Of a stretch of DNA of 32,000 nucleotides, positions 1-27,000 are shown piece after piece. Positions within the stretch are counted from its first letter, which is position 1, and every line of letters begins with the position of its first letter. Source of the stretch: Flavobacteriaceae bacterium. GTDB lineage: Bacteria; Bacteroidota; Bacteroidia; Flavobacteriales; Flavobacteriaceae. The stretch covers positions 2,040,001-2,072,000 of the forward strand of contig OZ245049.1 of assembly GCA_965224465.1 (NCBI GenBank), given 5' to 3'. A model generated the notes under the pieces. The model had not been told where the DNA came from. It was given only the letters and a program-made list of their open reading frames with translations, and did no database searches. Both the position numbers and the translations under genes were made by a program.

Positions 1-3000
1 CAGCTTGCCAAGCCTTTTACTTCTAGGGTTGTGGTACAGATAGCTCCGTTTTTAGCGGTAATTATAACATCGGTTCCTAAAGGAGCTGTTACTGTAGTTC
101 CATTCAATGATGCTCCTGTCGAAAGTGTAATATCACTTGACATATCTGCAACATCGGTGTAAATCTCGAAGGTATAATCAGCTGTTCCATCACAGGCGAT
201 TGGACCTGTACTTAAGACTGGTTTTATACATTCAGGACAGTCTGTTGGGGCAGTAATCGTGTGAACACTGTCTGCACATCCTGCATAACTAACTGTGATT
301 TTTACATCTGTTTTATTTTCTATCCCTGTGATACTATTCGTTCCAATAGTTACTCCTGAAAGCGCTGCTCCTGCTGCGTCTGTAATTGCAAGTGTTGCTC
401 CTGGGATTGTTTTATAACTAATAGTATAGCTAGCTGCTCCGTTACTTGCACAACTAGTACCTCCTATTGAAATAAGTGGATTTTCACATGGATCTAAACA
501 ATCTACTGGACTGGTCACTGCCATGGTCACCACACAATCAGTTCCGTTCTTCGCCTCGATGCTCATTGGTGTTCCAATAACTCCTGTGGCTGTTCCGTCT
601 GCGTTGTCTATTCCTCCTGTTACTGTAATGGTTGCTCCTGTACTTTCGCCATAGCTTACCGTATAACTTGTGGCGTTCATACCATCACAAATTGCTTGCC
701 CTACCACTAACTGTGGTAGTTTACAATCTGTTGGACAGGTTGCCAAGCCTTTTACTTCTAGGGTTGTGGTACAATTATTTCCGTTTTTAGCGGTAATTAT
801 AACATCGGTTCCTAAAGGAGCTGTTACTGTAGTTCCTACTAATGATGCTCCTGTCGAAAGTGTAATATCACTTGACATATCTGCAACATCGGTGTAAATC
901 TCGAAGGTATAATCAGCTGTTCCATCACAGGCGATTGGACCTGTACTTAAGACTGGTTTTATACATTCAGGACAGTCTGTTGGGGCAGTAATCGTGTGAA
1001 CACTGTCTGCACATCCTGCATAACTAACTGTGATTTTTACATCTGTTTTATTTTCTATTCCTGTGATACTTGTCGTTCCAATAGTTACTCCTGAAAGCGC
1101 TGCTCCTGCTGCGTCAGTAATTACAAGTGTTGCTCCTGGAATTATTTTATAACTAATAGTATAGCTAGCTGCTCCGTTACTTGCACAACTAGTACCTCCT
1201 ATTGAAATAAGTGGATTTTCACATGGATCTAAACAATCTACTGGACTGGTCACTGCCATGGTCACCACACAATCAGTTCCGTTCTTCGCCTCGATACTCA
1301 TTGGTGTTCCAATAACTCCTGTGGCTGTTCCGTCTGCATTGTCTGTTCCTCCTGTTACAGTTATGGTTGCTCCTGTACTTTCGCCGTAGCTTACCGTATA
1401 ACTTGTGGCGTTCATACCATCACAAATTGCTTGCCCTACCACTAACTGTGGTAGTTTACAATCTGTTGGACAGGTTGCCAAGCCTTTTACTTCTAAGGTT
1501 GTGGTACAGTTAGCTCCGTTTTTAGCGGTGATTATAACATCGGTTCCTAAAGGAGCTGTTACTGTAGTTCCTACTAATGATGCTCCTGTCGAAAGTGTAA
1601 TATCATTTGACATATCAGCAACATCTGTGTAAATTTCGAAGGTATAATTCGCTGTTCCATCACAGGCGATTGGACCTGTACTCAATGTTGGTCTTTTACA
1701 TTCTGGACAGTCTGTTGGGGCAGTAATCGTGTGAACACTGTCTGCACATCCTGCATAACTAACTGTGATTTTTACATCTGTTTTATTTTCAATCCCTGTG
1801 ATACTTGTCGTTCCAATAGTTACTCCTGAAAGCGCTGCTCCTGCTGCGTCTGTAATTACAAGTGTTGCTCCTGGAATTATTTTATAACTAATAGTATAGC
1901 TAGCTGCTCCGCTACTTGCACAACTAGTACCTCCTATTGAAACAAGTGGATTTTCACATGGATCTAAACAATCTACTGGACTGGTCACTTCCATGGTCAC
2001 CACACAATCAGTTCCGTTCTTCGCCTCGATGCTCATTGGTGTTCCAATAACTCCTGTGGCTGTTCCGTCTGCGTTGTCTGTTCCTCCTGTTACCGTTATA
2101 GTAGCTCCTGTACTTTCGCCGTAGCTTACCGTATAACTTGTGGCGTTCATACCATCACAAATTGCTTGCCCTACCACTAACTGTGGTAGTTTACAATCTG
2201 TTGGACAGCTTGCCAAGCCTTTTACTTCTAGGGTTGTGGTACAGCTAGCTCCGTTTTTAGCGGTGATTGTAACATCGGTTCCTAAAGGAGCTGTTACTGT
2301 AGTTCCATTCAATGATGCTCCTGTCGAAAGTGTAATATCACTTGACATATCTGCAACATCGGTGTAAATCTCGAAGGTATAATCAGCTGTTCCATCACAG
2401 GCGATTGGACCTGTACTCAATGTTGGTCTTTTACATTCTGGACAGTCTGTTGGAGCAGTAATCGTGTGAACACTGTCTGCACATCCTGCATAACTAACTG
2501 TGATTTTTACATCTGTTTTATTTTCTATTCCTGTGATACTTGTCGTTCCAATAGTTACTCCTGAAAGCGCTGCTCCTGCTGCGTCTGTAATTACAAGTGT
2601 TGCTCCTGGGATTATTTTATAACTAATAGTATAGCTAGCTGCTCCGTTACTTGCACAACTAGTCCCTCCTATTGAAATAAGTGGATTTTCACATGGATCT
2701 AAACAATCTACTGGACTGGTCACTTCCATGGTCACCACACAATCAGTTCCGTTCTTCGCCTCGATGCTCATTGGTGTTCCAATAACTCCTGTGGCTGTTC
2801 CGTCTGCGTTGTCTGTTCCTCCTGTTACCGTTATAGTAGCTCCTGTACTTTCGCCGTAGCTTACCGTATAACTTGTGGCGTTCATACCATCACAAATTGC
2901 TTGCCCTACCACTAACTGTGGTAGTTTACAATCTGTTGGACAACTTGCCAAGCCTTTTACTTCTAAGGTTGTGGTACAGCTAGCTCCGTTTTTAGCGGTG

Positions 3001-6000
3001 ATTATAACATCGGTTCCTAATAGCGCTGTTACTGTAGTTCCTACTAATGATGCTCCTGTCGAAAGTGTAATATCATTTGACATATCAGCAACATCTGTAT
3101 AAATCTCGAAGGTATAATTCGCTGTTCCATCACAGGCGATTGGACCTGTACTTAAGACTGGTTTTTTACATTCAGGACAGTCTGTTGGGGCAGTAATCGT
3201 GTGAACACTGTCTGCACATCCTGCATAACTAACTGTGATTTTTACATCTGTTCCGTTTGGTATCCCTGAGATACTTGTCGTTCCAATAGTTGCTCCTGCA
3301 ATTGCTGCATCTGCTGCGTCTGTAATTACAAGTGTTGCGCCTGGGATTGTTTTATAACTAATAGTATAGGTATCCGTTCCGTCAGTTGCACAACTAGTAC
3401 CTCCTATTGAAACAAGTGGATTTTCACATGGATCTAAACAATCTGCTGGACTGGTTACTTCCATGGTCACCACACAATCAGTTCCGTTCTTCGCCTCGAT
3501 GCTCATTGGTGTTCCAATAACTCCTGTGGCTGTTCCGTCTGCGTTGTCTGTTCCTCCTGTTACCGTTATGGTTGCTCCTGTACTTTCACCGTAGCTTACC
3601 GTATAACTTGCGGCGTTCATACCATCACAAATTGCTTGCCCTACCACTAACTGTGGTAGTTTACAATCTGTTGGACAGGTTGCCAAGCCTTTTACTTCTA
3701 GGATTGTGGTACAGCTAGCTCCGTTTTTAGCGGTGATTGTAACATCGGTTCCTAAAGGAGCTGATACAATATTCCCTGCTAATGATGCTCCTATCGAAAG
3801 TGTAATATCACTTGACATATCAGCAACATCTGTATAAATCTCGAAGGTATAATCAGCTCCTCCATCACAGGCGATTGGGCCTGTACTTAAGACTGGTTTT
3901 TTACATTCTGGACAGTCTGTTGGGGCAGTAATCGTGTGAACACTGTCTGCACATCCTGCATAACTAACTGTGATTTTTACATCCGTTCCGTTTGGTATCC
4001 CTGAGATACTTGTCGTTCCAACAGTTGCTCCTGCAATCGCTGCATCTGCGGCGTCTGTAATTACAAGTGTTGCGCCTGGGATTGTTTTATAACTAATAGT
4101 GTAAGTATCCGTTCCGTCAGTTGCACAACTAGTACCTCCTATTGAAACAAGTGGATTTTCACATGGATCTAAACAATCTGCTGGACTGGTCACTTCCATG
4201 GTCACCACACAATCAGTTCCGTTCTTCGCCTCGATGCTCATTGGTGTTCCAATAACTCCTGTGGCTGTTCCGTCTGCATTGTCTGTTCCTCCTGTTACCG
4301 TTATGGTTGCCCCTGTACTTTCGCCGTAGCTTACCGTATAACTTGTGGCGTTCATTCCATCACAAATTGCTTGCCCTACCACTAACTGTGGTAGTTTACA
4401 ATCTGTTGGACAGCTTGCCAAGCCTTTTACTTCTAGGGTTGTGGTACAATTATCTCCGTTTTTAGCGGTGATTGTAACATCGGTTCCTAAAGGAGCTGTT
4501 ACAATATTCCCTGCTAATGATGCTCCTATCGAAAGTGTAATATCACTTGACATATCAGCAACATCGGTATAAATCTCGAAGGTATAATTCGCTGTTCCAT
4601 CACAGGCGATTGGGCCTGTACTTAAGACTGGTTTTATACATTCAGGACAGTCTGTTGGGGCAGTAATCGTGTGAACACTGTCTGCACATCCTGCATAACT
4701 AACTGTGATTTTTACATCCGTTCCGTTTGGTATCCCTGAGATACTTGTCGTTCCAACAGTTGCTCCTGCAATCGCTGCATCTGCGGCGTCTGTAATTACA
4801 AGTGTTGCACCTGGGATTGTTTTATAACTAATAGTATAGGTATCCGTTCCGTCAGTTGCACAACTAGTACCTCCTATTGAAACAAGTGGATTTTCACATG
4901 GATCTAAACAATCTGCTGGACTGGTTACTTCCATGGTCACCACACAATCAGTTCCGTTCTTCGCCTCGATGCTCATTGGTGTTCCAATAACTCCTGTGGC
5001 TGTTCCGTCTGCGTTGTCTGTTCCGCCTGTTACCGTTATGGTAGCTCCAGTACTTTCACCGTAGCTTACCGTATAACTTGTGGCGTTTATACCATCACAA
5101 ATTGCTTGCCCTACCACTAACTGTGGTAGTTTACAATCTGTTGGACAGGTTGCCAAGCCTTTTACTTCTAGGGTTGTGGTACAATTATTTCCGTTTTTAG
5201 CGGTGATTGTAACATCGGTTCCTAAAGGAGCTGTTACAATATTCCCTGTTAATGTTCCTCCGACTACTGTAATGTTTGTAGGCATATCAGCAACATCTGT
5301 ATAAATCTCGAAGGTATAATCAGCTGTTCCATCACAGGCAATTGGACCTGTACTCAATGTTGGTTTTTTACATTCTGGACAGTCTGTTGGGGCAGTAATC
5401 ATGTGAACACTGTCTGCACATCCTGCATAACTAACTGTGATTTTTACATCCGTTCCGTTTGGTATTCCAGTGATACTTGTCGTTCCATTAGTTGCTCCTG
5501 CAATCGCTGCATCTGCGGCGTCTGTAATTACAAGTGTTGCGCCTGGTATTGTTTTATAACTAATAGTATAGGTATCCGTTCCGTCAGTTGCACAACTAGT
5601 ACCTCCTATTGAAACAAGTGGATTTTCACATGGATCTAAACAATCTGCTGGACTGGTCACTTCCATGGTCACCACACAATCAGTTCCGTTCTTCGCCTCG
5701 ATGCTCATTGGTGTTCCAATAACTCCTGTGGCTGTTCCGTCTGCATTGTCTGTTCCGCCTGTTACCGTTATGGTAGCTCCTGTACTTTCGCCGTAGCTTA
5801 CCGTATAACTTGTGGCGTTCATACCATCACAAATTGCTTGCCCTACCACTAACTGTGGTAGTTTACAATCTGTTGGACAGGTTGCCAAGCCTTTTACTTC
5901 TAGGGTTGTGGTACAGTTAGCTCCGTTTTTAGCGGTAATTATAACATCGGTTCCTAAAGGAGCTGTTACAATATTCCCTGTTAATGATGCTCCTATCGAA

Positions 6001-9000
6001 AGTGTAATATCACTTGACATATCTGCAACATCGGTGTAAATCTCGAAGGTATAATCAGCTCCTCCATCACAGGCAATTGGGCCTGTACTTAAGACTGGTT
6101 TTTTACATTCTGGACAGTCTGTTGGGGCAGTAATCGTGTGAACACTGTCTGCACATCCTGCATAACTAACTGTGATTTTTACATCTGTTCCGTTTGGTAT
6201 TCCTGTGATACTTGTCGTTCCAATAGTTGCTCCTGCAATCGCTGCATCTGCTGCGTCTGTAATTGCAAGTGTTGCTCCTGGGATTGTTTTATAACTAATA
6301 GTATAGGTATCCGTTCCGTCAGTTGCACAACTAGTACCTCCTATTGAAACAAGTGGATTTTCACATGGATCTGAACAATCTGCTGGACTGGTCACTTCCA
6401 TGGTCACCACACAATCAGTTCCGTTCTTCGCCTCGATGCTCATTGGTGTTCCAATAACTCCTGTGGCTGTTCCGTCTGCATTGTCTGTTCCGCCTGTTAC
6501 CGTTATGGTAGCTCCTGTACTTTCGCCGTAGCTTACCGTATAACTTGTGGCGTTCATACCATCACAAATTGCTTGCCCTACCACTAACTGTGGTAGTTTA
6601 CAATCTGTTGGACAGGTTGCCAAGCCTTTTACTTCTAGGGTTGTGGTACAATTATTTCCGTTTTTAGCGGTGATTGTAACATCGGTTCCTAAAGGAGCTG
6701 TTACAATATTCCCTGTTAATGTTCCTCCGACTACTGTAATGTTTGTAGGCATATCAGCAACATCTGTATAAATCTCGAAGGTATAATCAGCTGTTCCATC
6801 ACAGGCGATTGGGCCTGTACTCAATGTTGGTCTTTTACATTCAGGACAGTCTGTTGGGGCAGTAATCGTGTGAACACTGTCTGCACATCCTGCATAACTA
6901 ACTGTGATTTTTACATCCGTTCCGTTTGGTATCCCTGAGATACTTGTCGTTCCAACAGTTGCTCCTGCAATCGCTGCATCTGCGGCGTCTGTAATTACAA
7001 GTGTTGCGCCTGGGATTGTTTTATAACTAATAGTGTAAGTATCCGTTCCGTCAGTTGCACAACTAGTACCTCCTATTGAAACAAGTGGATTTTCACATGG
7101 ATCTAAACAATCTGCTGGACTGGTCACTTCCATGGTCACCACACAATCAGTTCCGTTCTTCGCCTCGATGCTCATTGGTGTTCCAATAACTCCTGTGGCT
7201 GTTCCGTCTGCATTGTCTGTTCCGCCTGTTACCGTTATGGTAGCTCCTGTACTTTCGCCGTAGCTTACCGTATAACTTGTGGCGTTCATACCATCACAAA
7301 TTGCTTGCCCTACCACTAACTGTGGTAGTTTACAATCTGTTGGACAGGTTGCCAAGCCTTTTACTTCTAGGGTTGTGGTACAATTATTTCCGTTTTTAGC
7401 GGTGATTGTAACATCGGTTCCTAAAGGAGCTGTTACAATATTCCCTGCTAATGATGCTCCTATCGAAAGTGTAATATCACTTGACATATCAGCAACATCG
7501 GTGTAAATCTCGAAGGTATAATCAGCTCCTCCATCACAGGCAATTGGGCCTGTACTTAAGACTGGTTTTTTACATTCTGGACAGTCTGTTGGGGCAGTAA
7601 TCGTGTGAACACTGTCTGCACATCCTGCATAACTAACTGTGATTTTTACATCCGTTCCGTTTGGTATTCCTGTGATACTTGTCGTTCCAATAGTTGCTCC
7701 TGCAATCGCTGCATCTGCGGCGTCTGTAATTACAAGTGTTGCACCTGGGATTGTTTTATAACTAATAGTATAGGTATCCGTTCCGTCAGTTGCACAACTA
7801 GTACCTCCTATTGAAACAAGTGGATTTTTACATGGATCTAAACAATCTGCTGGACTGGTTACTTCCATGGTCACCACACAATCAGTTCCGTTCTTCGCCT
7901 CGATGCTCATTGGTGTTCCAATAACTCCTGTGGCTGTTCCGTCTGCGTTGTCTGTTCCACCTGTTACCGTTATGGTTACTCCTGTACTTTCACCGTAGCT
8001 TACCGTATAACTTGTGGCGTTCATACCATCACAAATTGCTTGCCCTAGCACTAACTGTGGTAGTTTACAATCTGTTGGGCAGGTTACCAAGCCTTTTACT
8101 TCTAGGGTTGTGGTACAGTTAGCTCCGTTTTTAGCGATAATTATTACATCGGTTCCTAAAGGAGCTGATACTGTAGTTCCATTCAATGATGCTCCTGTCG
8201 AAAGTGTAATATCACTTGACATATCTGCAACATCTGTATAAATCTCGAAGGTATAATCAGCTGTTCCATCACAGGCAATTGGGCCTGTACTTAAGACTGG
8301 TTTTTTACATTCTGGACAGTCTGTTGGGGCAGTAATCGTGTGAACACTGTCTGCACATCCTGCATAACTAACTGTGATTTTTACATCTGTTCCGTTTGGT
8401 ATCCCTGAGATACTTGTCGTTCCAATAGTTGCTCCTGCAATTGCTGCATCTGCTGCGTCTGTAATTACAAGTGTTGCGCCTGGGATTGTTTTATAACTAA
8501 TAGTATAGGTATCCGTTCCGTCAGTTGCACAACTAGTACCTCCTATTGAAACAAGTGGATTTTCACATGGATCTAAACAATCTGCTGGACTGGTTACTTC
8601 CATGGTCACCACACAATCAGTTCCGTTCTTCGCCTCGATGCTCATTGGTGTTCCAATAACTCCTGTGGCTGTTCCGTCTGCATTGTCTGTTCCGCCTGTT
8701 ACCGTTATGGTAGCTCCTGTACTTTCGCCGTAGCTTACCGTATAACTTGTGGCGTTCATACCATCACAAATTGCTTGCCCTACCACTAACTGTGGTAGTT
8801 TACAATCTGTTGGGCAGGTTACCAAGCCTTTTACTTCTAGGGTTGTGGTACAGTTAGCTCCGTTTTTAGCGATAATTATTACATCGGTTCCTAAAGGAGC
8901 TGATACTGTAGTTCCATTCAATGATGCTCCTGTCGAAAGTGTAATATCACTTGACATATCTGCAACATCTGTATAAATCTCGAAGGTATAATCAGCTGTT

Positions 9001-12000
9001 CCATCACAGGCAATTGGACCTGTACTCAATGTTGGTTTTTTACATTCAGGACAGTCTGTTGGGGCAGTAATCGTGTGAACACTGTCTGCACATCCTGCAT
9101 AACTAACTGTGATTTTTACATCTGTTCCGTTTGGTATCCCTGAGATACTTGTCGTTCCAATAGTTACTCCTGAAAGCGCTGCTCCTGCTGCGTCTGTAAT
9201 TACAAGTGTTGCTCCTGGGATTATTTTATAACTAATAGTATAGCTAGCTGCTCCGTTACTTGCACAACTAGTACCTCCTATTGAAACAAGTGGATTTTCA
9301 CATGGATCTAAACAATCTGCTGGACTGGTCACTTCCATGGTCACCACACAATCAGTTCCGTTCTTCGCCTCGATGCTCATTGGTGTTCCAATAACTCCTG
9401 TGGCTGTTCCGTCTGCGTTGTCTGTTCCGCCTGTTACCGTTATGGTTGCTCCAGTACTTTCGCCGTAGCTTACCGTATAACTTGTGGCGTTTATACCATC
9501 ACAAATTGCTTGCCCTACCACTAACTGTGGTAGTTTACAATCTGTTGGACAGCTTGCCAAGCCTTTTACTTCTAGGGTTGTGGTACAGCTAGCTCCGTTT
9601 TTAGCAGTAATTATAACATCGGTTCCTAATAGCGCTGTTACTGTAGTTCCTACTAATGATGCTCCTGTCGAAAGTGTAATATCACTTGACATATCTGCAA
9701 CATCGGTGTAAATCTCGAAGGTATAATCAGCTCCTCCATCACAGGCAATTGGGCCTGTACTCAATGTTGGTCTTTTACATTCAGGACAGTCTGTTGAGGC
9801 AGTAATCATGTGAACACTGTCTGCACATCCTGCATAACTAACTGTGATTTTTACATCCGTTCCGTTTGGTATTCCAGTGATACTTGTCGTTCCAATAGTT
9901 GCTCCTGCAATCGCTGCATCTGCGGCGTCTGTAATTACAAGTGTTGCGCCTGGTATTGTTTTATAACTAATAGTATAGGTATCCGTTCCGTCAGTTGCAC
10001 AACTAGTACCTCCTATTGAAACAAGTGGATTTTCACATGGATCTAAACAATCTACTGGACTGGTCACTTCCATGGTCACCACACAATCAGTTCCGTTCTT
10101 CGCCTCGATGCTCATTGGTGTTCCAATAACTCCTGTGGCTGTTCCGTCTGCATTGTCTGTTCCTCCTGTTACTGTTATGGTTGCTCCTGTACTTTCGCCG
10201 TAGCTTACCGTATAACTTGTGGCGTTCATACCATCACAAATTGCTTGCCCTACCACTAACTGTGGTAGTTTACAATCTGTTGGACAGGTTGCCAAGCCTT
10301 TTACTTCTAGGGTTGTGGTACAATTATTTCCGTTTTTAGCGGTAATTATAACATCGGTTCCTAAAGGAGCTGTTACTGTAGTTCCATTCAATGATGCTCC
10401 TGTCGAAAGTGTAATATCACTTGACATATCTGCAACATCGGTGTAAATCTCGAAGGTATAATCAGCTGTTCCATCACAGGCGATTGGACCTGTACTTAAG
10501 ACTGGTTTTATACATTCAGGACAGTCTGTTGGGGCAGTAATCGTGTGAACACTGTCTGCACATCCTGCATAACTAACTGTGATTTTTACATCTGTTTTAT
10601 TTTCTATCCCTGTGATACTATTCGTTCCAATAGTTACTCCTGAAAGCGCTGCTCCTGCTGCGTCTGTAATTACAAGTGTTGCTCCTGGGATTGTTTTATA
10701 ACTAATAGTATAGCTAGCTGCTCCGTTACTTGCACAACTAGTACCTCCTATTGAAATAAGTGGATTTTCACATGGATCTAAACAATCTACTGGACTGGTC
10801 ACTGCCATGGTCACCACACAATCAGTTCCGTTCTTCGCCTCGATGCTCATTGGTGTTCCAATAACTCCTGTGGCTGTTCCGTCTGCGTTGTCTGTTCCTC
10901 CTGTTACCGTTATGGTTGCTCCTGTACTTTCGCCGTAGCTTACCGTATAACTTGTGGCGTTCATACCATCACAAATTGCTTGCCCTACCACTAACTGTGG
11001 TAGTTTACAATCTGTTGGACAGCTTGCCAAGCCTTTTACTTCTAGGGTTGTGGTACAGCTAGCTCCGTTTTTAGCGGTAATTATAACATCGGTTCCTAAA
11101 GGAGCTGTTACTGTAGTTCCATTCAATGATGCTCCTGTCGAAAGTGTAATATCACTTGACATATCTGCAACATCGGTGTAAATCTCGAAGGTATAATCAG
11201 CTGTTCCATCACAGGCGATTGGACCTGTACTTAAGACTGGTTTTATACATTCAGGACAGTCTGTTGGGGCAGTAATCGTGTGAACACTGTCTGCACATCC
11301 TGCATAACTAACTGTGATTTTTACATCTGTTTTATTTTCTATCCCTGTGATACTATTCGTTCCAATAGTTATTCCTGAAAGCGCTGCTCCTGCTGCGTCT
11401 GTAATTACAAGTGTTGCTCCTGTAATTATTTTATAACTAATAGTATAGCTAGCTGCTCCGTTACTTGCACAACTAGTACCTCCTATTGAAATAAGTGGAT
11501 TTTCACATGGATCTAAACAATCTACTGGACTGGTCACTGCCATGGTCACCACACAATCAGTTCCGTTCTTCGCCTCGATGCTCATTGGTGTTCCTATAAC
11601 TCCTGTGGCTGTTCCGTCTGCATTGTCTGTTCCTCCTGTTACTGTAATGGTTGCTCCTGTACTTTCGCCGTAGCTTACCGTATAACTTGTGGCGTTCATA
11701 CCATCACAAATTGCTTGCCCTACCACTAACTGTGGCAGTTTACAATCTGTTGGACAGGTTGCCAAGCCTTTTACTTCTAGGGTTGTGGTACAATTATTTC
11801 CGTTTTTAGCGGTAATTATAACATCGGTTCCTAAAACAGCTGTTACAATATTCCCTGTTAATGTTCCTCCGACTACTGTAATGTTTGTAGGCATATCTGA
11901 AACATCGGTGTAAATCTCGAAGGTATAATCAGCTGTTCCATCACAGGCGATTGGACCTGTACTCAATGTTGGTCTTTTACATTCTGGACAGTCTGTTGGG

Positions 12001-15000: not shown

Positions 15001-18000
15001 CCGTTTGGTATCCCTGAGATACTTGTCGTTCCAATAGTTGCTCCTGCAATTGCTGCATCTGCTGCGTCTGTAATTACAAGTGTTGCGCCTGGGATTGTTT
15101 TATAACTAATAGTATAAGTATCCGTTCCGTCAGTTGCACAACTAGTACCTCCTATTGAAACAAGTGGATTTTCACATGGATCTAAACAATCTGCTGGACT
15201 GGTCACTGCCATGGTCACCACACAATCAGTTCCGTTCTTCGCCTCGATGCTCATTGGTGTTCCAATAACTCCTGTGGCTGTTCCGTCTGCGTTGTCTGTT
15301 CCTCCTGTTACCGTTATGGTTGCTCCTGTACTTTCGCCGTAGCTTACCGTATAACTTGTGGCGTTCATACCATCACAAATTGCTTGCCCTACTACTAACT
15401 GTGGTAGTTTACAATCTGTTGGACAGGTTGCCAAGCCTTTTACTTCTAGGGTTGTGGTACAGCTAGCTCCGTTTTTAGCAGTAATTATAACATCGGTTCC
15501 TAATAGCGCTGTTACTGTAGTTCCTACTAATGATGCTCCTGTCGAAAGTGTAATATCATTTGACATATCTGCAACATCGGTGTAAATCTCGAAGGTATAA
15601 TTCGCTGTTCCATCACAGGCGATTGGGCCTGTACTTAAGACTGGTTTTATACATTCAGGACAGTCTGTTGGGGCAGTAATCGTGTGAACACTGTCTGCAC
15701 ATCCTGCATAACTAACTGTGATTTTTACATCTGTTTTATTTTCTATTCCTGTGATACTTGTCGTTCCAATAGTTGCTCCTGCAATTGCTGCATCTGCTGC
15801 GTCTGTAATTACAAGTGTTGCACCTGGGATTGTTTTATAACTAATAGTATAGGTATCCGTTCCGTCAGTTGCACAACTAGTACCTCCTATTGAAACAAGT
15901 GGATTTTCACATGGATCTAAACAATCTGCTGGACTGGTCACTTCCATGGTCACCACACAATCAGTTCCGTTCTTCGCCTCGATGCTCATTGGTGTTCCAA
16001 TAACTCCTGTGGCTGTTCCGTCTGCGTTGTCTGTTCCGCCTGTTACCGTTATGGTTGCTCCAGTACTTTCGCCGTAGCTTACCGTATAACTTGTGGCGTT
16101 TATACCATCACAAATTGCTTGCCCTACCACCAACTGTGGTAGTTTACAATCTGTTGGACAGCTTGCCAAGCCTTTTACCTCTAGGGTTGTGGTACAATTA
16201 TCTCCGTTTTTAGCGGTGATTGTAACATCGGTTCCTAAAGGAGCTGTTACAATATTCCCTGCTAATGATGCTCCTATCGAAAGTGTAATATCACTTGACA
16301 TATCAGCAACATCGGTGTAAATCTCGAAGGTATAATTCGCTGTTCCATCACAGGCGATTGGGCCTGTACTTAAGACTGGTTTTATACATTCAGGACAGTC
16401 TGTTGGGGCAGTAATCGTGTGAACACTGTCTGCACATCCTGCATAACTAACTGTGATTTTTACATCCGTTCCGTTTGGTATCCCTGAGATACTTGTCGTT
16501 CCAACAGTTGCTCCTGCAATCGCTGCATCTGCGGCGTCTGTAATTACAAGTGTTGCGCCTGGGATTGTTTTATAACTAATAGTGTAAGTATCCGTTCCGT
16601 TACTTGCACAACTAGTACCTCCTATTGAAACAAGTGGATTTTCACATGGATCTAAACAATCTGCTGGACTGGTCACTTCCATGGTCACCACACAATCAGT
16701 TCCGTTCTTCGCCTCGATGCTCATTGGTGTTCCAATAACTCCTGTGGCTGTTCCGTCTGCGTTGTCTGTTCCGCCTGTTACCGTTATGGTAGCTCCTGTA
16801 CTTTCACCGTAGCTTACCGTATAACTTGTGCCGTTTATACCATCACAAATTGCTTGCCCTACCACTAACTGTGGTAGTTTACAATCTGTTGGACAGCTTG
16901 CCAAGCCTTTTACTTCTAGGGTTGTGGTACAGTTAGCTCCGTTTTTAGCGGTGATTGTAACATCGGTTCCTAAAGGAGCTGTTACAATATTCCCTGTTAA
17001 TGATGCTCCTATCGAAAGTGTAATATCACTTGACATATCTGCAACATCTGTATAAATCTCGAAGGTATAATTCGCTGTTCCATCACAGGCGATTGGACCT
17101 GTACTTAAGACTGGTTTTTTACATTCAGGACAGTCTGTTGGGGCAGTAATCGTGTGAACACTGTCTGCACATCCTGCATAACTAACTGTGATTTTTACAT
17201 CCGTTCCGTTTGGTATTCCTGTGATACTTGTCGTTCCAATAGTTGCTCCTGCAATCGCTGCATCTGCGGCGTCTGTAATTACAAGTGTTGCACCTGGGAT
17301 TGTTTTATAACTAATAGTATAGGTATCCGTTCCGTCAGTTGCACAACTAGTACCTCCTATTGAAACAAGTGGATTTTCACATGGATCTAAACAATCTGCT
17401 GGACTGGTTACTTCCATGGTCACCACACAATCAGTTCCGTTCTTCGCCTCGATGCTCATTGGTGTTCCAATAACTCCTGTGGCTGTTCCGTCTGCGTTGT
17501 CTGTTCCGCCTGTTACCGTTATGGTAGCTCCAGTACTTTCACCGTAGCTTACCGTATAACTTGTGGCGTTTATACCATCACAAATTGCTTGCCCTACCAC
17601 TAACTGTGGTAGTTTACAATCTGTTGGACAGGTTGCCAAGCCTTTTACTTCTAGGGTTGTGGTACAATTATTTCCGTTTTTAGCGGTGATTGTAACATCG
17701 GTTCCTAAAGGAGCTGTTACAATATTCCCTGTTAATGTTCCTCCGACTACTGTAATGTTTGTAGGCATATCAGCAACATCTGTATAAATCTCGAAGGTAT
17801 AATCAGCTGTTCCATCACAGGCAATTGGACCTGTACTCAATGTTGGTTTTTTACATTCTGGACAGTCTGTTGGGGCAGTAATCATGTGAACACTGTCTGC
17901 ACATCCTGCATAACTAACTGTGATTTTTACATCCGTTCCGTTTGGTATTCCAGTGATACTTGTCGTTCCATTAGTTGCTCCTGCAATCGCTGCATCTGCG

Positions 18001-21000
18001 GCGTCTGTAATTACAAGTGTTGCGCCTGGTATTGTTTTATAACTAATAGTATAGGTATCCGTTCCGTCAGTTGCACAACTAGTACCTCCTATTGAAACAA
18101 GTGGATTTTCACATGGATCTAAACAATCTGCTGGACTGGTCACTTCCATGGTCACCACACAATCAGTTCCGTTCTTCGCCTCGATGCTCATTGGTGTTCC
18201 AATAACTCCTGTGGCTGTTCCGTCTGCATTGTCTGTTCCGCCTGTTACCGTTATGGTAGCTCCTGTACTTTCGCCGTAGCTTACCGTATAACTTGTGGCG
18301 TTCATACCATCACAAATTGCTTGCCCTACCACTAACTGTGGTAGTTTACAATCTGTTGGACAGCTTGCCAAGCCTTTTACTTCTAGGGTTGTGGTACAGT
18401 TAGCTCCGTTTTTAGCGGTAATTATAACATCGGTTCCTAAAGGAGCTGTTACAATATTCCCTGTTAATGATGCTCCTATCGAAAGTGTAATATCACTTGA
18501 CATATCTGCAACATCGGTGTAAATCTCGAAGGTATAATCAGCTCCTCCATCACAGGCAATTGGGCCTGTACTTAAGACTGGTTTTTTACATTCTGGACAG
18601 TCTGTTGGGGCAGTAATCGTGTGAACACTGTCTGCACATCCTGCATAACTAACTGTGATTTTTACATCTGTTCCGTTTGGTATTCCTGTGATACTTGTCG
18701 TTCCAATAGTTGCTCCTGCAATCGCTGCATCTGCTGCGTCTGTAATTGCAAGTGTTGCTCCTGGGATTGTTTTATAACTAATAGTATAGGTATCCGTTCC
18801 GTCAGTTGCACAACTAGTACCTCCTATTGAAACAAGTGGATTTTCACATGGATCTGAACAATCTGCTGGACTGGTCACTTCCATGGTCACCACACAATCA
18901 GTTCCGTTCTTCGCCTCGATGCTCATTGGTGTTCCAATAACTCCTGTGGCTGTTCCGTCTGCATTGTCTGTTCCGCCTGTTACCGTTATGGTAGCTCCTG
19001 TACTTTCGCCGTAGCTTACCGTATAACTTGTGGCGTTTATACCATCACAAATTGCTTGCCCTACCACTAACTGTGGTAGTTTACAATCTGTTGGACAGGT
19101 TGCCAAGCCTTTTACTTCTAGGGTTGTGGTACAATTATTTCCGTTTTTAGCGGTGATTGTAACATCGGTTCCTAAAGGAGCTGTTACAATATTCCCTGTT
19201 AATGTTCCTCCGACTACTGTAATGTTTGTAGGCATATCAGCAACATCTGTATAAATCTCGAAGGTATAATCAGCTGTTCCATCACAGGCGATTGGGCCTG
19301 TACTCAATGTTGGTCTTTTACATTCAGGACAGTCTGTTGGGGCAGTAATCGTGTGAACACTGTCTGCACATCCTGCATAACTAACTGTGATTTTTACATC
19401 CGTTCCGTTTGGTATCCCTGAGATACTTGTCGTTCCAACAGTTGCTCCTGCAATCGCTGCATCTGCGGCGTCTGTAATTACAAGTGTTGCACCTGGGATT
19501 GTTTTATAACTAATAGTATAGGTATCCGTTCCGTCAGTTGCACAACTAGTACCTCCTATTGAAACAAGTGGATTTTTACATGGATCTAAACAATCTGCTG
19601 GACTGGTTACTTCCATGGTCACCACACAATCAGTTCCGTTCTTCGCCTCGATGCTCATTGGTGTTCCAATAACTCCTGTGGCTGTTCCGTCTGCGTTGTC
19701 TGTTCCACCTGTTACCGTTATGGTTACTCCTGTACTTTCACCGTAGCTTACCGTATAACTTGTGGCGTTCATACCATCACAAATTGCTTGCCCTAGCACT
19801 AACTGTGGTAGTTTACAATCTGTTGGGCAGGTTACCAAGCCTTTTACTTCTAGGGTTGTGGTACAGTTAGCTCCGTTTTTAGCGATAATTATTACATCGG
19901 TTCCTAAAGGAGCTGATACTGTAGTTCCATTCAATGATGCTCCTGTCGAAAGTGTAATATCACTTGACATATCTGCAACATCTGTATAAATCTCGAAGGT
20001 ATAATCAGCTGTTCCATCACAGGCAATTGGGCCTGTACTTAAGACTGGTTTTTTACATTCTGGACAGTCTGTTGGGGCAGTAATCGTGTGAACACTGTCT
20101 GCACATCCTGCATAACTAACTGTGATTTTTACATCTGTTCCGTTTGGTATCCCTGAGATACTTGTCGTTCCAATAGTTGCTCCTGCAATTGCTGCATCTG
20201 CTGCGTCTGTAATTACAAGTGTTGCGCCTGGGATTGTTTTATAACTAATAGTATAGGTATCCGTTCCGTCAGTTGCACAACTAGTACCTCCTATTGAAAC
20301 AAGTGGATTTTCACATGGATCTAAACAATCTGCTGGACTGGTTACTTCCATGGTCACCACACAATCAGTTCCGTTCTTCGCCTCGATGCTCATTGGTGTT
20401 CCAATAACTCCTGTGGCTGTTCCGTCTGCATTGTCTGTTCCGCCTGTTACCGTTATGGTAGCTCCTGTACTTTCGCCGTAGCTTACCGTATAACTTGTGG
20501 CGTTCATACCATCACAAATTGCTTGCCCTACCACTAACTGTGGTAGTTTACAATCTGTTGGGCAGGTTACCAAGCCTTTTACTTCTAGGGTTGTGGTACA
20601 GTTAGCTCCGTTTTTAGCGATAATTATTACATCGGTTCCTAAAGGAGCTGATACTGTAGTTCCATTCAATGATGCTCCTGTCGAAAGTGTAATATCACTT
20701 GACATATCTGCAACATCTGTATAAATCTCGAAGGTATAATCAGCTGTTCCATCACAGGCAATTGGACCTGTACTCAATGTTGGTTTTTTACATTCAGGAC
20801 AGTCTGTTGGGGCAGTAATCGTGTGAACACTGTCTGCACATCCTGCATAACTAACTGTGATTTTTACATCTGTTCCGTTTGGTATCCCTGAGATACTTGT
20901 CGTTCCAATAGTTACTCCTGAAAGCGCTGCTCCTGCTGCGTCTGTAATTACAAGTGTTGCTCCTGGGATTATTTTATAACTAATAGTATAGCTAGCTGCT

Positions 21001-24000
21001 CCGTTACTTGCACAACTAGTACCTCCTATTGAAACAAGTGGATTTTCACATGGATCTAAACAATCTGCTGGACTGGTCACTTCCATGGTCACCACACAAT
21101 CAGTTCCGTTCTTCGCCTCGATGCTCATTGGTGTTCCAATAACTCCTGTGGCTGTTCCGTCTGCGTTGTCTGTTCCGCCTGTTACCGTTATGGTTGCTCC
21201 AGTACTTTCGCCGTAGCTTACCGTATAACTTGTGGCGTTTATACCATCACAAATTGCTTGCCCTACCACTAACTGTGGTAGTTTACAATCTGTTGGACAG
21301 CTTGCCAAGCCTTTTACTTCTAGGGTTGTGGTACAGCTAGCTCCGTTTTTAGCAGTAATTATAACATCGGTTCCTAATAGCGCTGTTACTGTAGTTCCTA
21401 CTAATGATGCTCCTGTCGAAAGTGTAATATCACTTGACATATCTGCAACATCGGTGTAAATCTCGAAGGTATAATCAGCTCCTCCATCACAGGCAATTGG
21501 GCCTGTACTCAATGTTGGTCTTTTACATTCAGGACAGTCTGTTGAGGCAGTAATCATGTGAACACTGTCTGCACATCCTGCATAACTAACTGTGATTTTT
21601 ACATCCGTTCCGTTTGGTATTCCAGTGATACTTGTCGTTCCAATAGTTGCTCCTGCAATCGCTGCATCTGCGGCGTCTGTAATTACAAGTGTTGCGCCTG
21701 GTATTGTTTTATAACTAATAGTATAGGTATCCGTTCCGTCAGTTGCACAACTAGTACCTCCTATTGAAACAAGTGGATTTTCACATGGATCTAAACAATC
21801 TACTGGACTGGTCACTTCCATGGTCACCACACAATCAGTTCCGTTCTTCGCCTCGATGCTCATTGGTGTTCCAATAACTCCTGTGGCTGTTCCGTCTGCA
21901 TTGTCTGTTCCTCCTGTTACTGTTATGGTTGCTCCTGTACTTTCACCGTAGCTTACCGTATAACTTGTGGCGTTCATACCATCACAAATTGCTTGCCCTA
22001 GCACTAACTGTGGTAGTTTACAATCTGTTGGGCAGGTTACCAAGCCTTTTACTTCTAGGGTTGTGGTACAGTTAGCTCCGTTTTTAGCGATAATTATTAC
22101 ATCGGTTCCTAAAGGAGCTGATACTGTAGTTCCATTCAATGATGCTCCTGTCGAAAGTGTAATATCACTTGACATATCTGCAACATCTGTATAAATCTCG
22201 AAGGTATAATCAGCTGTTCCATCACAGGCAATTGGACCTGTACTCAATGTTGGTTTTTTACATTCTGGACAGTCTGTTGGGGCAGTAATCATGTGAACAC
22301 TGTCTGCACATCCTGCATAACTAACTGTGATTTTTACATCCGTTCCGTTTGGTATTCCAGTGATACTTGTCGTTCCAATAGTTGCTCCTGCAATCGCTGC
22401 ATCTGCGGCGTCTGTAATTACAAGTGTTGCGCCTGGGATTGTTTTATAACTAATAGTATAGGTATCCGTTCCGTCAGTTGCACAACTAGTACCTCCTATT
22501 GAAACAAGTGGATTTTCACATGGATCTAAACAATCTGCTGGACTGGTCACTTCCATGGTCACCACACAATCAGTTCCGTTCTTCGCCTCGATGCTCATTG
22601 GTGTTCCAATAACTCCTGTGGCTGTTCCGTCTGCGTTGTCTGTTCCGCCTGTTACCGTTATGGTTGCTCCAGTACTTTCGCCGTAGCTTACCGTATAACT
22701 TGTGGCGTTTATACCATCACAAATTGCTTGCCCTACCACTAACTGTGGTAGTTTACAATCTGTTGGACAGGTTGCCAAGCCTTTTACCTCTAGGGTTGTG
22801 GTACAGTTAGCTCCGTTTTTAGCGGTGATTGTAACATCGGTTCCTAAAGGAGCTGATACTGTAGTTCCATTCAATGATGCTCCTGTCGAAAGTGTAATAT
22901 CACTTGACATATCTGCAACATCGGTGTAAATCTCGAAGGTATAATTCGCTGTTCCATCACAGGCGATTGGGCCTGTACTCAATGTTGGTCTTTTACATTC
23001 AGGACAGTCTGTTGGGGCAGTAATCGTGTGAACACTGTCTGCACATCCTGCATAACTAACTGTGATTTTTACATCTGTTCCGTTTGGTATCCCTGAGATA
23101 CTTGTCGTTCCAATAGTTGCTCCTGCAATTGCTGCATCTGCTGCGTCTGTAATTACAAGTGTTGCGCCTGGTATTGTTTTATAACTAATAGTATAGGTAT
23201 CCGTTCCGTCACTTGCACAACTAGTACCTCCTATTGAAACAAGTGGATTTTCACATGGATCTAAACAATCTGCTGGACTGGTCACTTCCATGGTCACCAC
23301 ACAATCAGTTCCGTTCTTCGCCTCGATGCTCATTGCTGTTCCAATAACTCCTGTGGCTGTTCCGTCTGCATTGTCTGTTCCTCCTGTTACCGTTATGGTT
23401 GCTCCTGTACTTTCGCCGTAGCTTACCGTATAACTTGTGGCGTTCATACCATCACAAATTGCTTGCCCTACCACTAACTGTGGTAGTTTACAATCTGTTG
23501 GACAACTTGCCAAGCCTTTTACTTCTAGGGTTGTGGTACAGCTAGCTCCGTTTTTAGCGGTAATTATAACATCGGTTCCTAAAGGAGCTGTTACTGTAGT
23601 TCCTACTAATGATGCTCCTGTCGAAAGTGTAATATCATTTGACATATCTGCAACATCGGTGTAAATCTCGAAGGTATAATCAGCTGTTCCATCACAGGCG
23701 ATTGGGCCTGTACTTAAGACTGGTTTTTTACATTCTGGACAGTCTGTTGGGGCAGTAATCGTGTGAACACTGTCTGCACATCCTGCATAACTAACTGTGA
23801 TTTTTACATCTGTTCCGTTTGGTATCCCTGAGATACTTGTCGTTCCAATAGTTGCTCCTGCAATTGCTGCATCTGCTGCGTCTGTAATTACAAGTGTTGC
23901 GCCTGGGATTGTTTTATAACTAATAGTATAAGTATCCGTTCCGTCAGTTGCACAACTAGTACCTCCTATTGAAACAAGTGGATTTTCACATGGATCTAAA

Positions 24001-27000
24001 CAATCTGCTGGACTGGTTACTTCCATGGTCACCACACAATCAGTTCCGTTCTTCGCCTCGATGCTCATTGGTGTTCCAATAACTCCTGTGGCTGTTCCGT
24101 CTGCATTGTCTGTTCCTCCTGTTACCGTTATGGTAGCTCCTGTACTTTCACCGTAGCTTACCGTATAACTTGTGGCGTTCATACCTTCACAAATTGCTTG
24201 CCCTACTACTAACTGTGGTAGTTTACAATCTGTTGGACAGGTTGCCAAGCCTTTTACTTCTAGGGTTGTGGTACATCCACTTTTATTAACAACTGTTATA
24301 ACAACATCCGTATTTAACGCAACGGTTACAACGTCATTTAATAAGGTACCATTAGAAATAGTATATTTAGAATCATCTGTAATATCACTATTACTAAATA
24401 AATTAAAGGTATAATTAGCTGTTCCATCACAAGAAACAGGTCCTGTAGTTAAAGTAGGTTTTTGAATATCAATAAGTACCTTTTCTGTATACATTACAGA
24501 ACAGCCATTCAAATCTGACACTGTTAATTTATACGTATCAGGCTTCGTCACTTTCATTGTCAATATATTACTGTCAGAATTATCATCTGTAATAACATTC
24601 CCTGAACTATCTGTCCATACATATATATAATCAGTAGCTGCTGAAACTTTACCTCCTGATGCTGCCGTAGCAGTTAATAAACCAGGCGTATTACAGTAAA
24701 TAGTTGTTGCACTTGCAATAGCGCTTAATAGAGCATCCGCAGGCTCTGTTACTATTTTAGTGGACGTAAACGAACAATTATTAACATCCGTCACCACCAC
24801 TTTATACGTACCTGCTGTCAAGCCAGATTGATCTTCATTTGATACACTTAACCCAGTACCATCAGTTGTTGACCAAACAAATGTATAAGGAGTTTTCCCT
24901 CCAGAAACTGTTAAATCAATTGCTCCATTTGCTTCTCCATTACAAGAAATTGGGTTTTGAGCTAAGGTAACATCTATTGCTGCTGGCTGAGTTAATGTAA
25001 CACTTGTTGTTGCCTCACAATTGGTATCTGTATCTTTTACTACTATCGTATAGGTTCCAATAGCCAAGCCTATTTGATCTTTATCTGTTGCTGTAAGTCC
25101 AGTCCCATCGGTACTTGTCCAAGCATACGAATAATTACCAGATCCATTTAAAACAACTAGCGAAATAGTCCCTGATGAATCACCATTACACGCAATATCC
25201 GTAATTACATTTGGTGAGATATCTAAAGAACAACCTTCTGCATTTACCGTAGTTATATTGGTTGCCGTACAGTTATTAGCATCTGTAATTGTTACTGTAT
25301 AATCCCCTGCGGTAAGTCCGGTAGCTGTAGCTGTTGTCTGTACTGGAGCAGAATTCCAAGAATAGGTATAAGGACCAGTACCCCCAGAAGGAATAGCAGT
25401 TACTTCTCCTTCAGTACCTAATACTGTCACTTGATGTGACAAGGTACTTGCCGCTACTGTTAATGATTTTTTAGGCTCTGAAATCCGCACACTTTGTTCA
25501 GAAAAACAACCTTTATTACTTATTGCCTTTAACGTATATACTCCACTTGGAACATCACTTAAGGTTGCTGAAGATCCTATTATTGTATTGGATGAATTAT
25601 ACCATTCATAGATTACAGGAGTATCTGCTGTGGTAACTACAGCTATTACACTCCCTGTATTTTCTCCTTTACATGTTACAGCTGTCGGTGTCATTGAATT
25701 AATTACAACCGCCGTATTACAGTTGTACGGATGAACTATTACCTGCTGTACTATTATACAACCTGCAGCATCGGTCACTGTTACTTGATAGGTCCCTGGA
25801 ACTCTTCCTGAAACACTTTCTGAACTCGCTATATTAGTAGCCGGAGGCGTAAGACCATCCTCAGAAACAATTAAATCCCACACATAACTATACGCCGTAA
25901 CACCATCTGTTACTGTGGCAGTCACGACACCATCATTTGCATCGATTCCAGTTTCATTTGAAGCTGTCGTACTTACATTTAATGTTGAATTAAATTCCTC
26001 TACCATTACTGTAACAGGAATTATCACAGTACACGTTCCAACATTTTTGGACGTTACGGTAATCGCACTATAAGCACCTATGCTTAAATCAGGAATCAAA
26101 ATAATCCCTGATGCATCTGTTGTTATATCTTGTACTAAAGCTGTAGCACCATCTTTTGAATAGCTTACACTGTATGTAGTATTCACTTTTAAACCACCGT
26201 TACTGATAACAATAGTTCCGTTATTTGCAGGCGCACACGTTGTAGGTGTTGTACTTATCGCTTTTAATTCCGCTGTTAATTCACACGGATTTACTTCAAG
26301 CAAGGCTGTTGTTACAGAAACACACCCTGTTGCTGGGGCAGATACAACTAACTTATACAAATACTTATCTATCGAATACTGAATATCTGTCAACGTAATA
26401 CTGTTGGATATTTCACCTGCAATATCTGTATATGTAGCACCATTATCCGTACTTACTTGCCATTGGTATACTAAATCGGAAGTGGCATCTACACTTGTAT
26501 TAGGATTGGTTGTAAAGTCCGTTACTTTGGTTGCTGACGCAGTCCCGGTAAATGTATGATTGTCTGAAATATCTACTGTTGCATTACTTATAGGATTGTC
26601 TATAGAGATTGTAATATTGGACAATGCTGCGGGGCTATATGTACTAACACCCTCTTTAAATTTGGTTAAATCTGTAGTCGCAGCGGAAGTATCATCTCCA
26701 TTTTCCAATAATGACGAATAGCCATTTTCTCCGTAGTCTGTAACCGTACTCCCTCCACTTTTTACTTGTCCATTTGTAAATGTCGTGTCTGTAGCAGAAG
26801 CCCCATCTGGTAAGGTCCCTTCTTGTAAATGTTCTTCAAGAATACCCGCTTCCATACTGTCTGGACAGCCATCATCATCCGAGTCTAGGTCTAAATAATT
26901 TGGTATTCCATCACCATCAGTATCCGCACAAGCAGCTGGCATTGCTGGACTTATTATTATTGCATAATTTGAATTCACGTTTGTACTCGTAGAATACACG

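Follow-up and report, generated by a model that had tools for sequence, protein, structure and literature searches.

Giant Ig-like adhesins and the analysed locus

Giant adhesins exported via type IX secretion systems (T9SS), such as SprB and GhpA, serve gliding and predation in Bacteroidota; to our knowledge, the shape and stiffness of their long repeat regions are almost unknown outside GhpA. Giant RTX adhesin extenders, secreted by the type I secretion system (T1SS), are exemplified by the Marinomonas ice-binding adhesin with ~120 tandem immunoglobulin (Ig)-like repeats and by SiiE, and calcium at their linkers stiffens them. GhpA of Aureispira is a T9SS substrate of ~5,900 amino acids (aa) with a stem of 52 Ig-like repeats, and PorP and PorE homologues are encoded downstream. 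Its stem domains are O-glycosylated, and the stem is straight and rigid partly via intramolecular disulfides between nearby Ig-like domains (the reported disulfide joins residues 152 apart); the structure measures 240 nm with 52 repeats plus hook, and its rigidity also needs heptamer formation. The window analysed here is a 32,000-nucleotide stretch of a Flavobacteriaceae bacterium, most likely a marine one (accession number GCA_965224465.1, contig OZ245049.1, positions 2,040,001 to 2,072,000), and it lay inside a single giant gene. Three quarters of it consisted of 33 tandem copies of a Cys-rich three-module super-repeat, which is probably the disulfide-stiffened extender stalk of a giant type-B T9SS surface protein of the SprB/GhpA class.

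Anatomy of the repeat array

The window was one open frame on the minus strand, read from base 32000 through 10,666 codons with no stops, while the other five frames contained 354 to 957 stops each. Because this single frame spanned the whole window and was open at both ends, no open reading frame (ORF) wholly contained within the window was listed; the protein exceeded 10,666 aa, and an internal piece of it was visible. The array occupied the C-terminal part of this piece and left the window at its C-terminal side. The coordinates originally predicted for it (3 to 24239) were right, with base 24239 as the start of residue 2588 and base 3 as the end of the final complete codon.

Each unit was composed of three homologous Ig-like modules, M1–M2–M3, of ~80 aa with four Cys apiece. 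Tandem Repeats Finder returned no repeat, its longest period (500 bp) being shorter than the unit, and the repeats were delimited from motif positions: CPTDC and CPEC each occurred 33 times at a spacing of 244/245 aa, and CLDPC occurred 31 times, the remaining two being variants at the same position. The resulting alignment of 33 units over 245 columns had a mean pairwise protein identity of 92% (84–100%), and Cys was present in 33/33 units at columns 1, 5, 17, 68, 80, 84, 96, 154, 167, 170, 182, and 234, giving the spacing patterns C-x3-C-x11-C-x50-C, C-x3-C-x11-C-x57-C, and C-x2-C-x11-C-x51-C. The original prediction of 33 tandem units of about 245 aa, each with 12 invariant Cys in these module spacings, thus agreed with motif spacing and alignment alike, and its estimate of about 400 Cys became a total of exactly 396 (33 x 12) in the array. 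The homology of the three modules was evident from hhalign (M1/M2 94%, M1/M3 96%) at an identity of about 35%.

The 99 consecutive modules originally counted were all present in the array, but one extra M3-like module stood ahead of them, so that the module hidden Markov model (HMM) recognized 100 modules in the window. This leading module lacked the N-terminal junction Cys, having IQKPTL instead of C-KKPVL, and it joined SprB-type repeats to the array. Cys density was 2–7 per 250 aa up to residue ~2500 and 12–13 per 250 aa from there to the end, the 2587 residues upstream of the array holding 45 Cys. The upstream SprB repeats had been described as free of the CxxC/CxxxC junction motif; one CxxC was found at residue 1189 of the upstream region, though not at a SprB repeat junction. 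G+C content was 0.43–0.44 over bases 1 to 24,000 and 0.36–0.40 beyond (24001 to 32000), a shift at the array boundary that arose because the array was a Thr/Gly/Ala-rich repeat (Thr 17.6%, Arg 0.1%). AT skew was about -0.21 in the array versus near 0 in the N-terminal part.

Family assignment and predicted fold

Two consecutive units (491 aa) had no match at or near the cut-offs of Pfam and NCBIfam, SprB (PF13573) did not match them at E <= 1, and a module profile run against PDB sequences found nothing, including no GhpA chain at E <= 10. The modules could accordingly be placed in no named family, as originally predicted. Defensin-like, Cu-oxidase, and zinc-ribbon models also appeared on the two units, all below cut-off, and were rejected as noise. 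When modules were aligned by hhalign with the protein's own SprB repeats, the third Cys of the module fell on the SprB 'GC' cysteine with each of two profiles, and this unnamed family may be distantly derived from SprB-type repeats.

The family was not unique to this gene. An exhaustive profile search with the unit profile reached 326 representative proteins, mostly giant. Of these, 109 scored below 1e-30; lengths of 2,000–7,400 aa were common among the relatives, and as many as 34 stretches matched in one protein. Word-indexed protein searches yielded no more than 2, 8, and 6 relatives, which came from Spirosoma, a Winogradskyella metagenome-assembled genome (MAG), Belliella, Joostella, and one cyanobacterial MAG and were for the most part short fragments. 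All four Cys were present in 692/985 unique modules from 153 proteins.

AlphaFold2 predicted a single module (29-sequence alignment) with seven strands at a mean predicted local distance difference test (pLDDT) of 90.1, the strands of M1 being 13–20, 27–34, 39–43, 45–47, 52–56, 61–67, and 71–77. The connection between strands C and C' was shortest in M1 (1 residue) and measured 4 residues in M3 and 9 in M2, lengths that fit a true turn. Foldseek neighbours of the single module were all Ig-like and weak (best E 0.04, template modelling score (TM) 0.49, nectin-2 D1), and they further included antibody V domains, intimin, and titin; the viral library BFVD added bacterial Ig-like, BIG2, FN3, and PKD domains. 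Across PDB and BFVD the best E was 0.03–0.04, with TM <= 0.5 and identity 7–20%. The Ig-like sandwich originally proposed for each module was thus what the structure prediction and its neighbours returned.

The three-module model M3–M1–M2 (273 aa) was predicted with pLDDT 84.1, predicted TM (pTM) 0.80, and pLDDT 86–91 at the junctions. For a chain of three small domains this pTM is high; it suggests that the domains sit in a defined geometry relative to one another, and it would fit a stiff stalk. In Foldseek, ~300 columns of this model could be aligned with arrays of three Ig domains and with six or seven GhpA cryo-EM fragments, but superposition on linear Ig arrays gave TM ~0.2 and a root-mean-square deviation (rmsd) of ~30 A: in these models, the domain fold matched and the inter-domain arrangement did not. 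Of the rigid stalk originally envisaged, the stiffness gained from the pTM and from the GhpA precedent, and the part that did not stand was the CxxC motif itself as the staple.

Cysteine ownership and pairing at the module junctions

The four Cys of a module were designated in order: (i) Ca, the N-terminal entry, at unit columns 5, 84, and 170; (ii) Cb, at the end of strand A, at columns 17, 96, and 182; (iii) Cc, at the start of strand G, at columns 68, 154, and 234; and (iv) Cd, after strand G, at columns 80 and 167 and at column 1 of the unit that follows. The pattern Ca-x11-Cb ... Cc-x11/12-Cd, with the next module joined by Cd-x(0-9)-Ca, was present in every one of the 99 array modules, and in the sequence each junction C-x2/3-C opens with the Cd of the preceding domain and closes with the Ca of the following one. 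Modules at the edges of arrays in relatives located the boundary: the first module of an array had the second junction Cys alone in 101 cases (P0008, P0013–P0017, P0024, P0028, P0033, and others, after unrelated domains), and the last module had the first junction Cys alone in 70 cases (P0001, P0003, P0005, P0009, P0012, for example). The domain boundary therefore lay inside CxxxC, and the two Cys belonged to different domains.

Pairing was deduced from comparative evidence, namely presence/absence and coupling of Cys across 1,174 module instances from 153 proteins. Of 593 distinct internal junctions, 547 had two Cys, 42 none, 3 one, and 1 three. The gap between the two junction Cys varied from 0 to 9 residues, while the Cc-to-Cd and Ca-to-Cb spacings were fixed at 12, sometimes 13. 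These two spacings covaried within modules (13/13 observed 48 versus 16 expected; 13/12 observed 14 versus 44 expected), as would be expected for two segments stapled together at both ends. In rare variants, Ca was lost together with Cc (modules of P0033, twice, and of P0107, P0037, and P0109) or Cb together with Cd (modules of P0034, P0037, and P0069). In 572 distinct internal modules, a parity model with Ca–Cc and Cb–Cd bonds, to which Cb(n)–Cc(n+1) was added at junctions without Cys, left 9 Cys unpaired, compared with 29 for Cb–Cc plus Ca–Cd and 35 for Cb–Cc plus a bond within CxxxC.

A mean-field coupling analysis (effective sequence number 318–499) was noisy, with both the three module subtypes and the invariant Cys columns as confounders. 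It nevertheless returned a C–C' hairpin (38–43, 35–45), antiparallel C–F pairing (34–62, 38/39–58, 36–60; sum about 96), contact of the start of C with the start of G (36–69), and contact of the E–F loop with the SP motif after strand G (54/55–76/77). Strands A and G showed a weakly positive band at offsets 60–64 and nothing along the antiparallel diagonal of sum 85. Together with the C–C' lengths, these couplings favour seven classical strands with A parallel to G and the domain termini at opposite poles.

The connectivity best matching these data bonds Ca to Cc at the N-terminal pole of each domain and Cb to Cd at its C-terminal pole, and we regard it as the probable one. It would also yield the rule of zero or two Cys per junction, because a junction without Cys is satisfied by Cb(n)–Cc(n+1), and insertion of CxxxC converts this bond into two intradomain bonds. 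The leading module of the window is accounted for in the same way, as it lacked Ca and was preceded by a SprB repeat able to supply Cb. In P0026, P0029, P0034, P0037, P0044, and P0052, one of the three super-repeat junctions lacked both Cys and had a linker 4–5 residues shorter; such relatives form a natural experiment for the proposed interdomain bond.

Proposed stalk and alternative explanations

On the preferred pairing, the stalk would be a run of Ig-like domains, at least 100 in a row, each seven-stranded and ~80 aa long and ordered in a three-domain super-repeat. Each 2–3-residue, proline-containing linker (PTD, LDP, PE) would be pinned at both ends to a domain core, with about 200 disulfides in the visible part. 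If the protein is built like its complete relatives, a type-B sorting domain and a PorP/SprF partner would anchor its C-terminus at the outer membrane; the stalk formed by the Cys-rich array would then lie nearest the cell, with the SprB repeats and the TSP3-rich N-terminal region distal. The pinned linkers would stiffen the chain and hold the N-terminal region, calcium-binding and putatively ligand-binding, far from the cell. At ~4 nm per domain, 100 modules would extend about 0.35–0.45 um.

The same Cys could be connected otherwise. If strands A and G ran antiparallel, with Cb–Cc and Ca–Cd bonds and both termini of each domain at one pole, the junction motifs would make up a spine held together by disulfides, from which the domains hang, in a much shorter and more compact fibre. 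Such an arrangement would suit the retention of Cb and Cc in SprB-like modules (57 modules), the equal 12/12 spacing expected of an in-register antiparallel pair (5+80 = 17+68 = 85), and the poor superposition of the three-module model on linear Ig arrays; it is nonetheless unlikely, as it left 29 internal Cys unpaired against 9 for the preferred pairing, had no explanation for the joint losses of Ca/Cc or Cb/Cd, and met a mean coupling of about zero along sum 85 with positive values at offsets 60–64, while the longer C–C' loops of M3 and M2 and the hairpin couplings pointed to a true hairpin and hence to seven strands. In the original prediction, the two Cys of CxxC/CxxxC bonded together or stapled the junction directly, with Cb–Cc as a core disulfide. 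The presence or absence of the two junction Cys together would be in keeping with this, but their joint loss arises equally from deletion of the whole CxxxC, the linkers without Cys being 4–5 residues shorter; moreover, this model left the most Cys unpaired (35 internal and 384 edge), the edge modules often carried one junction Cys alone, and the inter-Cys gap was variable while the 12-residue spacings to Cb and Cc were fixed and covarying. With the two Cys in different domains, the motif as a self-contained staple was not borne out, and we give it a still smaller chance than the antiparallel arrangement.

The preferred topology clusters four Cys at each junction, and Cb and Cd of one domain with Ca and Cc of the next could instead bind a metal, or the CxxC could be redox-active, stiffness or function then depending on metal or redox state. 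Weak sub-threshold Pfam zinc-ribbon matches across the CPEC region (E 0.24–0.58) lean this way. However, the zinc-ribbon/rubredoxin-like models were 15–25 bits under their cut-offs on the two units (Zn_ribbon_PADR1 E 0.24, Zn_ribbon_8 0.57, FmdB 0.21, rubrerythrin-like 0.45), the protein is predicted to be extracellular and to pass the oxidising periplasm, related junctions work with no Cys, and GhpA uses disulfides, so that a metal or redox site is the least probable of these explanations. A more speculative reading, about as improbable as the self-bonded motif, treats the junction Cys as a switchable site: a metal–Cys4 centre, or disulfides isomerising between the intradomain form and Cb(n)–Cc(n+1); separately, the CxxxC insertion may record a change, in the evolution of SprB-type fibres, from stapling between domains to stapling within them. 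If a switchable site were real, a surface fibre of ~0.4 um would change in stiffness or length with redox state or metal availability.

Several observations weigh against the disulfide-clamped linear stalk. Edge modules retained 191–384 unpaired Cys under every model and were uninformative on the pairing. The strongest Cys–Cys coupling was Cb–Cc (rank 3 in the first coupling analysis), as the antiparallel arrangement would have it, although couplings at near-invariant columns were unreliable (artefactual ties in the second analysis). Couplings 9–81 and 4–82 would bring the termini together, and the coupling alignment mixed three paralogous module types. DSSP left a single residue between C and C' in M1, so a six-strand reading of the model with both termini at the same pole is possible; these last couplings and this single residue likewise agree with the antiparallel arrangement. 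The hhalign match to SprB repeats depended on the profile, 70% (E 4e-5) with 29 sequences and 8% (E 4e-3) with 202, and SprB homology was not established by it. Finally, the signal peptide, sorting domain, and neighbour genes ascribed to this protein are borrowed from relatives at 44–63% identity, because neither gene end lies within the window.

Array DNA, copy number, and selection

The units were on average 94% identical as DNA, and two exact direct repeats were present in the array: (i) 2,505 bp, with 7692–10196 identical to 19440–21944 (offset 11,748 bp, about 16 units); and (ii) 1,123 bp, with 4758–5880 identical to 17241–18363. Units 5, 6, and 9 had 100% DNA identity to units 21, 22, and 26, respectively, and units 4–11 closely matched units 20–27, a block of about 7 units being duplicated at an offset of 16–17 units. 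Either these exact repeats go back to a segmental duplication of recent date, or the array was mis-assembled; the figure of 33 units thus presupposes a correct assembly. It is unlikely, at about the same level as the antiparallel arrangement above, that mis-joined long reads produced the count of 33 and that the real number of units in the gene is lower or higher. Besides the exact repeats at their ~16–17-unit offsets, what speaks for such an artefact is that relatives were routinely broken at such arrays in public assemblies and that, among the 150 best relatives, the largest arrays had only 51 and 36 modules, the 100 modules of the window being about twice the larger. However, the frame stayed open across 24 kb, all 12 Cys were kept in every unit, most units were distinct, and a recent segmental duplication accounts equally well for the exact repeats. 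An artefact of this kind would touch the count and not the nature of the feature.

There were 12 distinct variants of M1, 20 of M2, and 24 of M3 among the units, and the ratio of nonsynonymous to synonymous divergence (pN/pS) was 0.13 for M1, 0.60 for M2, and 0.40 for M3. All modules were under purifying selection, strongest on M1, which was nearly invariant among units, and the variable positions were concentrated in a few loops of M2 and M3. Synonymous divergence of M3 (pS 0.17) was twice that of M1 and M2 (0.08). These contrasts in pN/pS and pS hint at differing homogenisation histories or at diversifying surface loops in M2/M3.

Region N-terminal to the array

The modules were preceded by SprB-type repeats and, further upstream, by a TSP3-rich region that left the window N-terminally (Table 1). 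Pfam applied to the upstream 2587 aa gave SprB PF13573 with 83 bits and E 9.7e-24 over 5 stretches. The six thrombospondin-type-3 calcium-binding blocks (DTDNDGIPNxLDLDSDGDGCPD) were spaced ~290–330 aa apart, 5/6 were followed ~100 aa later by a second block (DTDGDG...DIDDDNDGILD), and they alternated with domains of ~150–250 aa that had no family assignment. NCBIfam BamM matched this N-terminal part in 11 stretches with 154 bits, below its cut-off of 315. The SprB repeats at window positions 24500–25700 matched phage capsid decoration Ig-like domains 8zvi and 5lxk (E 5e-4 to 1e-3), and this match ran via the motif GGTGPYTYxW...AGxYxVTVTD.

Table 1. Features of the giant open reading frame in the 32,000-nucleotide window
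Feature	Position	Strand	Residues	Characteristics
33 tandem super-repeat units, 244/245 aa	3..24239	-	2588-10666	Motif spacing, 12 invariant Cys columns, hhalign, 396 Cys
M3 of unit 1 (example)	23505..23741	-	2754-2832	CPEC...C182...C234; most variable module
M2 of unit 1 (example)	23742..24002	-	2667-2753	CLDPC...C96...C154; C-C' loop 8 aa longer
M1 of unit 1 (example)	24003..24239	-	2588-2666	CPTDC...C17...C68
Leading M3-like module	24240..24467	-	2512-2587	Module HMM match 2512-2595, E 1e-17
SprB-type Ig-like repeats	24468..26279	-	~1908-2511	About seven, 80-100 aa, mostly 2 Cys each
Visible N-terminal part	26280..32000	-	1-1907	TSP_3, 6 stretches (Pfam); ORF leaves window N-terminally

Relatives and gene neighbourhood

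The complete relative P0012 (5,074 aa) displayed the organization signal-like N-terminus, TSP3-rich domains, M3–M1–M2 super-repeat about twelve times (junctions CPLC / CPTDC / CDDPC), two DUF7507-type domains (PF24346), and a CHU_C type-B T9SS sorting domain (PF13585). P0003 shared its C-terminal order of modules, DUF7507, and CHU_C, and P0016, like P0012, started with a hydrophobic signal-like segment. Downstream of the P0012 gene, located in a complete 3.6-Mb chromosome, were PorP_SprF, PD40-like, and OmpA/CarboxypepD_reg genes. At this locus (L005; CP122539.1, 1275917–1303141), the same gene triplet was found on both flanks, which suggests tandem cargo–anchor cassettes. Among four reference-genome loci retrieved with a 5-sequence alignment, the closest belonged to a Flavobacteriaceae MAG with 63% identity and the same layout, and its contig stopped inside the array.

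On a Spirosoma telluris contig (L002; NZ_QLII01000001.1, 898866–919761), P0002, P0004, P0007, and P0010 (233–629 aa) were pieces of a module/SprB array, at least four short 'hypothetical proteins' in all, and a giant gene seems to have been frameshifted or mis-called into fragments there. Outside Bacteroidota, the family was met in P0008 of cyanobacterial MAG J06638_22 (522 aa), which had a signal peptide and an unrelated N-terminal domain, then four modules, the first with the second junction Cys alone.

Implications

This module family is shared by hundreds of giant proteins; with a name for it, genes that at present lie in fragments and are called 'hypothetical' would be better annotated. 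The placement of the domain boundary inside CxxxC and the restriction of junctions to zero or two Cys give a testable rule, which predicts clamping of the linker; ordinary two-Cys SprB repeats may be stapled domain-to-domain. A 100-module array, if real, would rank with the longest bacterial stalks known to consist of a single polypeptide, and its disulfide clamp would offer a way to stiffness that needs no calcium. Being small and well predicted, the three-module unit is a good structural target.

Comparison with known systems

Among the closest known systems are SprB of Flavobacterium johnsoniae and other giant CHU_C / type-B T9SS adhesins. Like these, the window encoded a giant Bacteroidota surface protein with ~80-aa Ig-like repeats, true PF13573 repeats stood in the same ORF, relatives ended in CHU_C with a PorP/SprF gene next to them, and Cb and Cc of the modules lay at the positions of the two SprB cysteines. 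Unlike SprB repeats, the modules had no SprB Pfam match, they carried four Cys, the extra two forming the CxxxC junction, and they were arranged in a strict three-module super-repeat of at least 100 near-identical copies.

GhpA provided the best bacterial Foldseek matches of the three-module model (cryo-EM entries 9g8b, 9flx, 9fly, and others; E 1.7e-4 to 6e-3), and the gene order downstream of P0012 was as in the ghpABC cluster. However, no sequence similarity to GhpA was detected, the likeness being at the level of the fold (13–18% identity, TM ~0.2); the GhpA disulfide over 152 residues differs from the pairing proposed for the modules; and GhpA is a heptamer, whereas the window gave no evidence of heptamer formation for its protein. 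An invariant D-S-V just after the third Cys of M2 (unit columns 156–158; CADSV at residues 2743–2745, for example) was present in all 33 copies. The O-glycosylation sequon of Bacteroidota is D-(S/T)-(A/I/L/M/T/V), and in sequence this motif fits it.

The giant RTX adhesin extenders offered a functional analogy, with no homology claimed: they likewise consist of tens to more than 100 near-identical Ig-like domains, homogenised at the DNA level, in a stiffened spacer by which ligand-binding domains are held out from the cell. The stiffener proposed for the modules differs in being a disulfide pair around each linker, and secretion would be by T9SS. With generic Ig-like, FN3, and BIG2 domains, the modules shared the seven predicted strands and a neighbourhood that also comprised Ig V/I-set, intimin, titin, and PKD domains, but the matches were weak and the modules lacked the canonical B–F disulfide of Ig domains. 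Taken together, the system is a variant of the SprB/GhpA-type Ig-like fibre whose domain family is itself unnamed and is widespread among giant T9SS adhesins.

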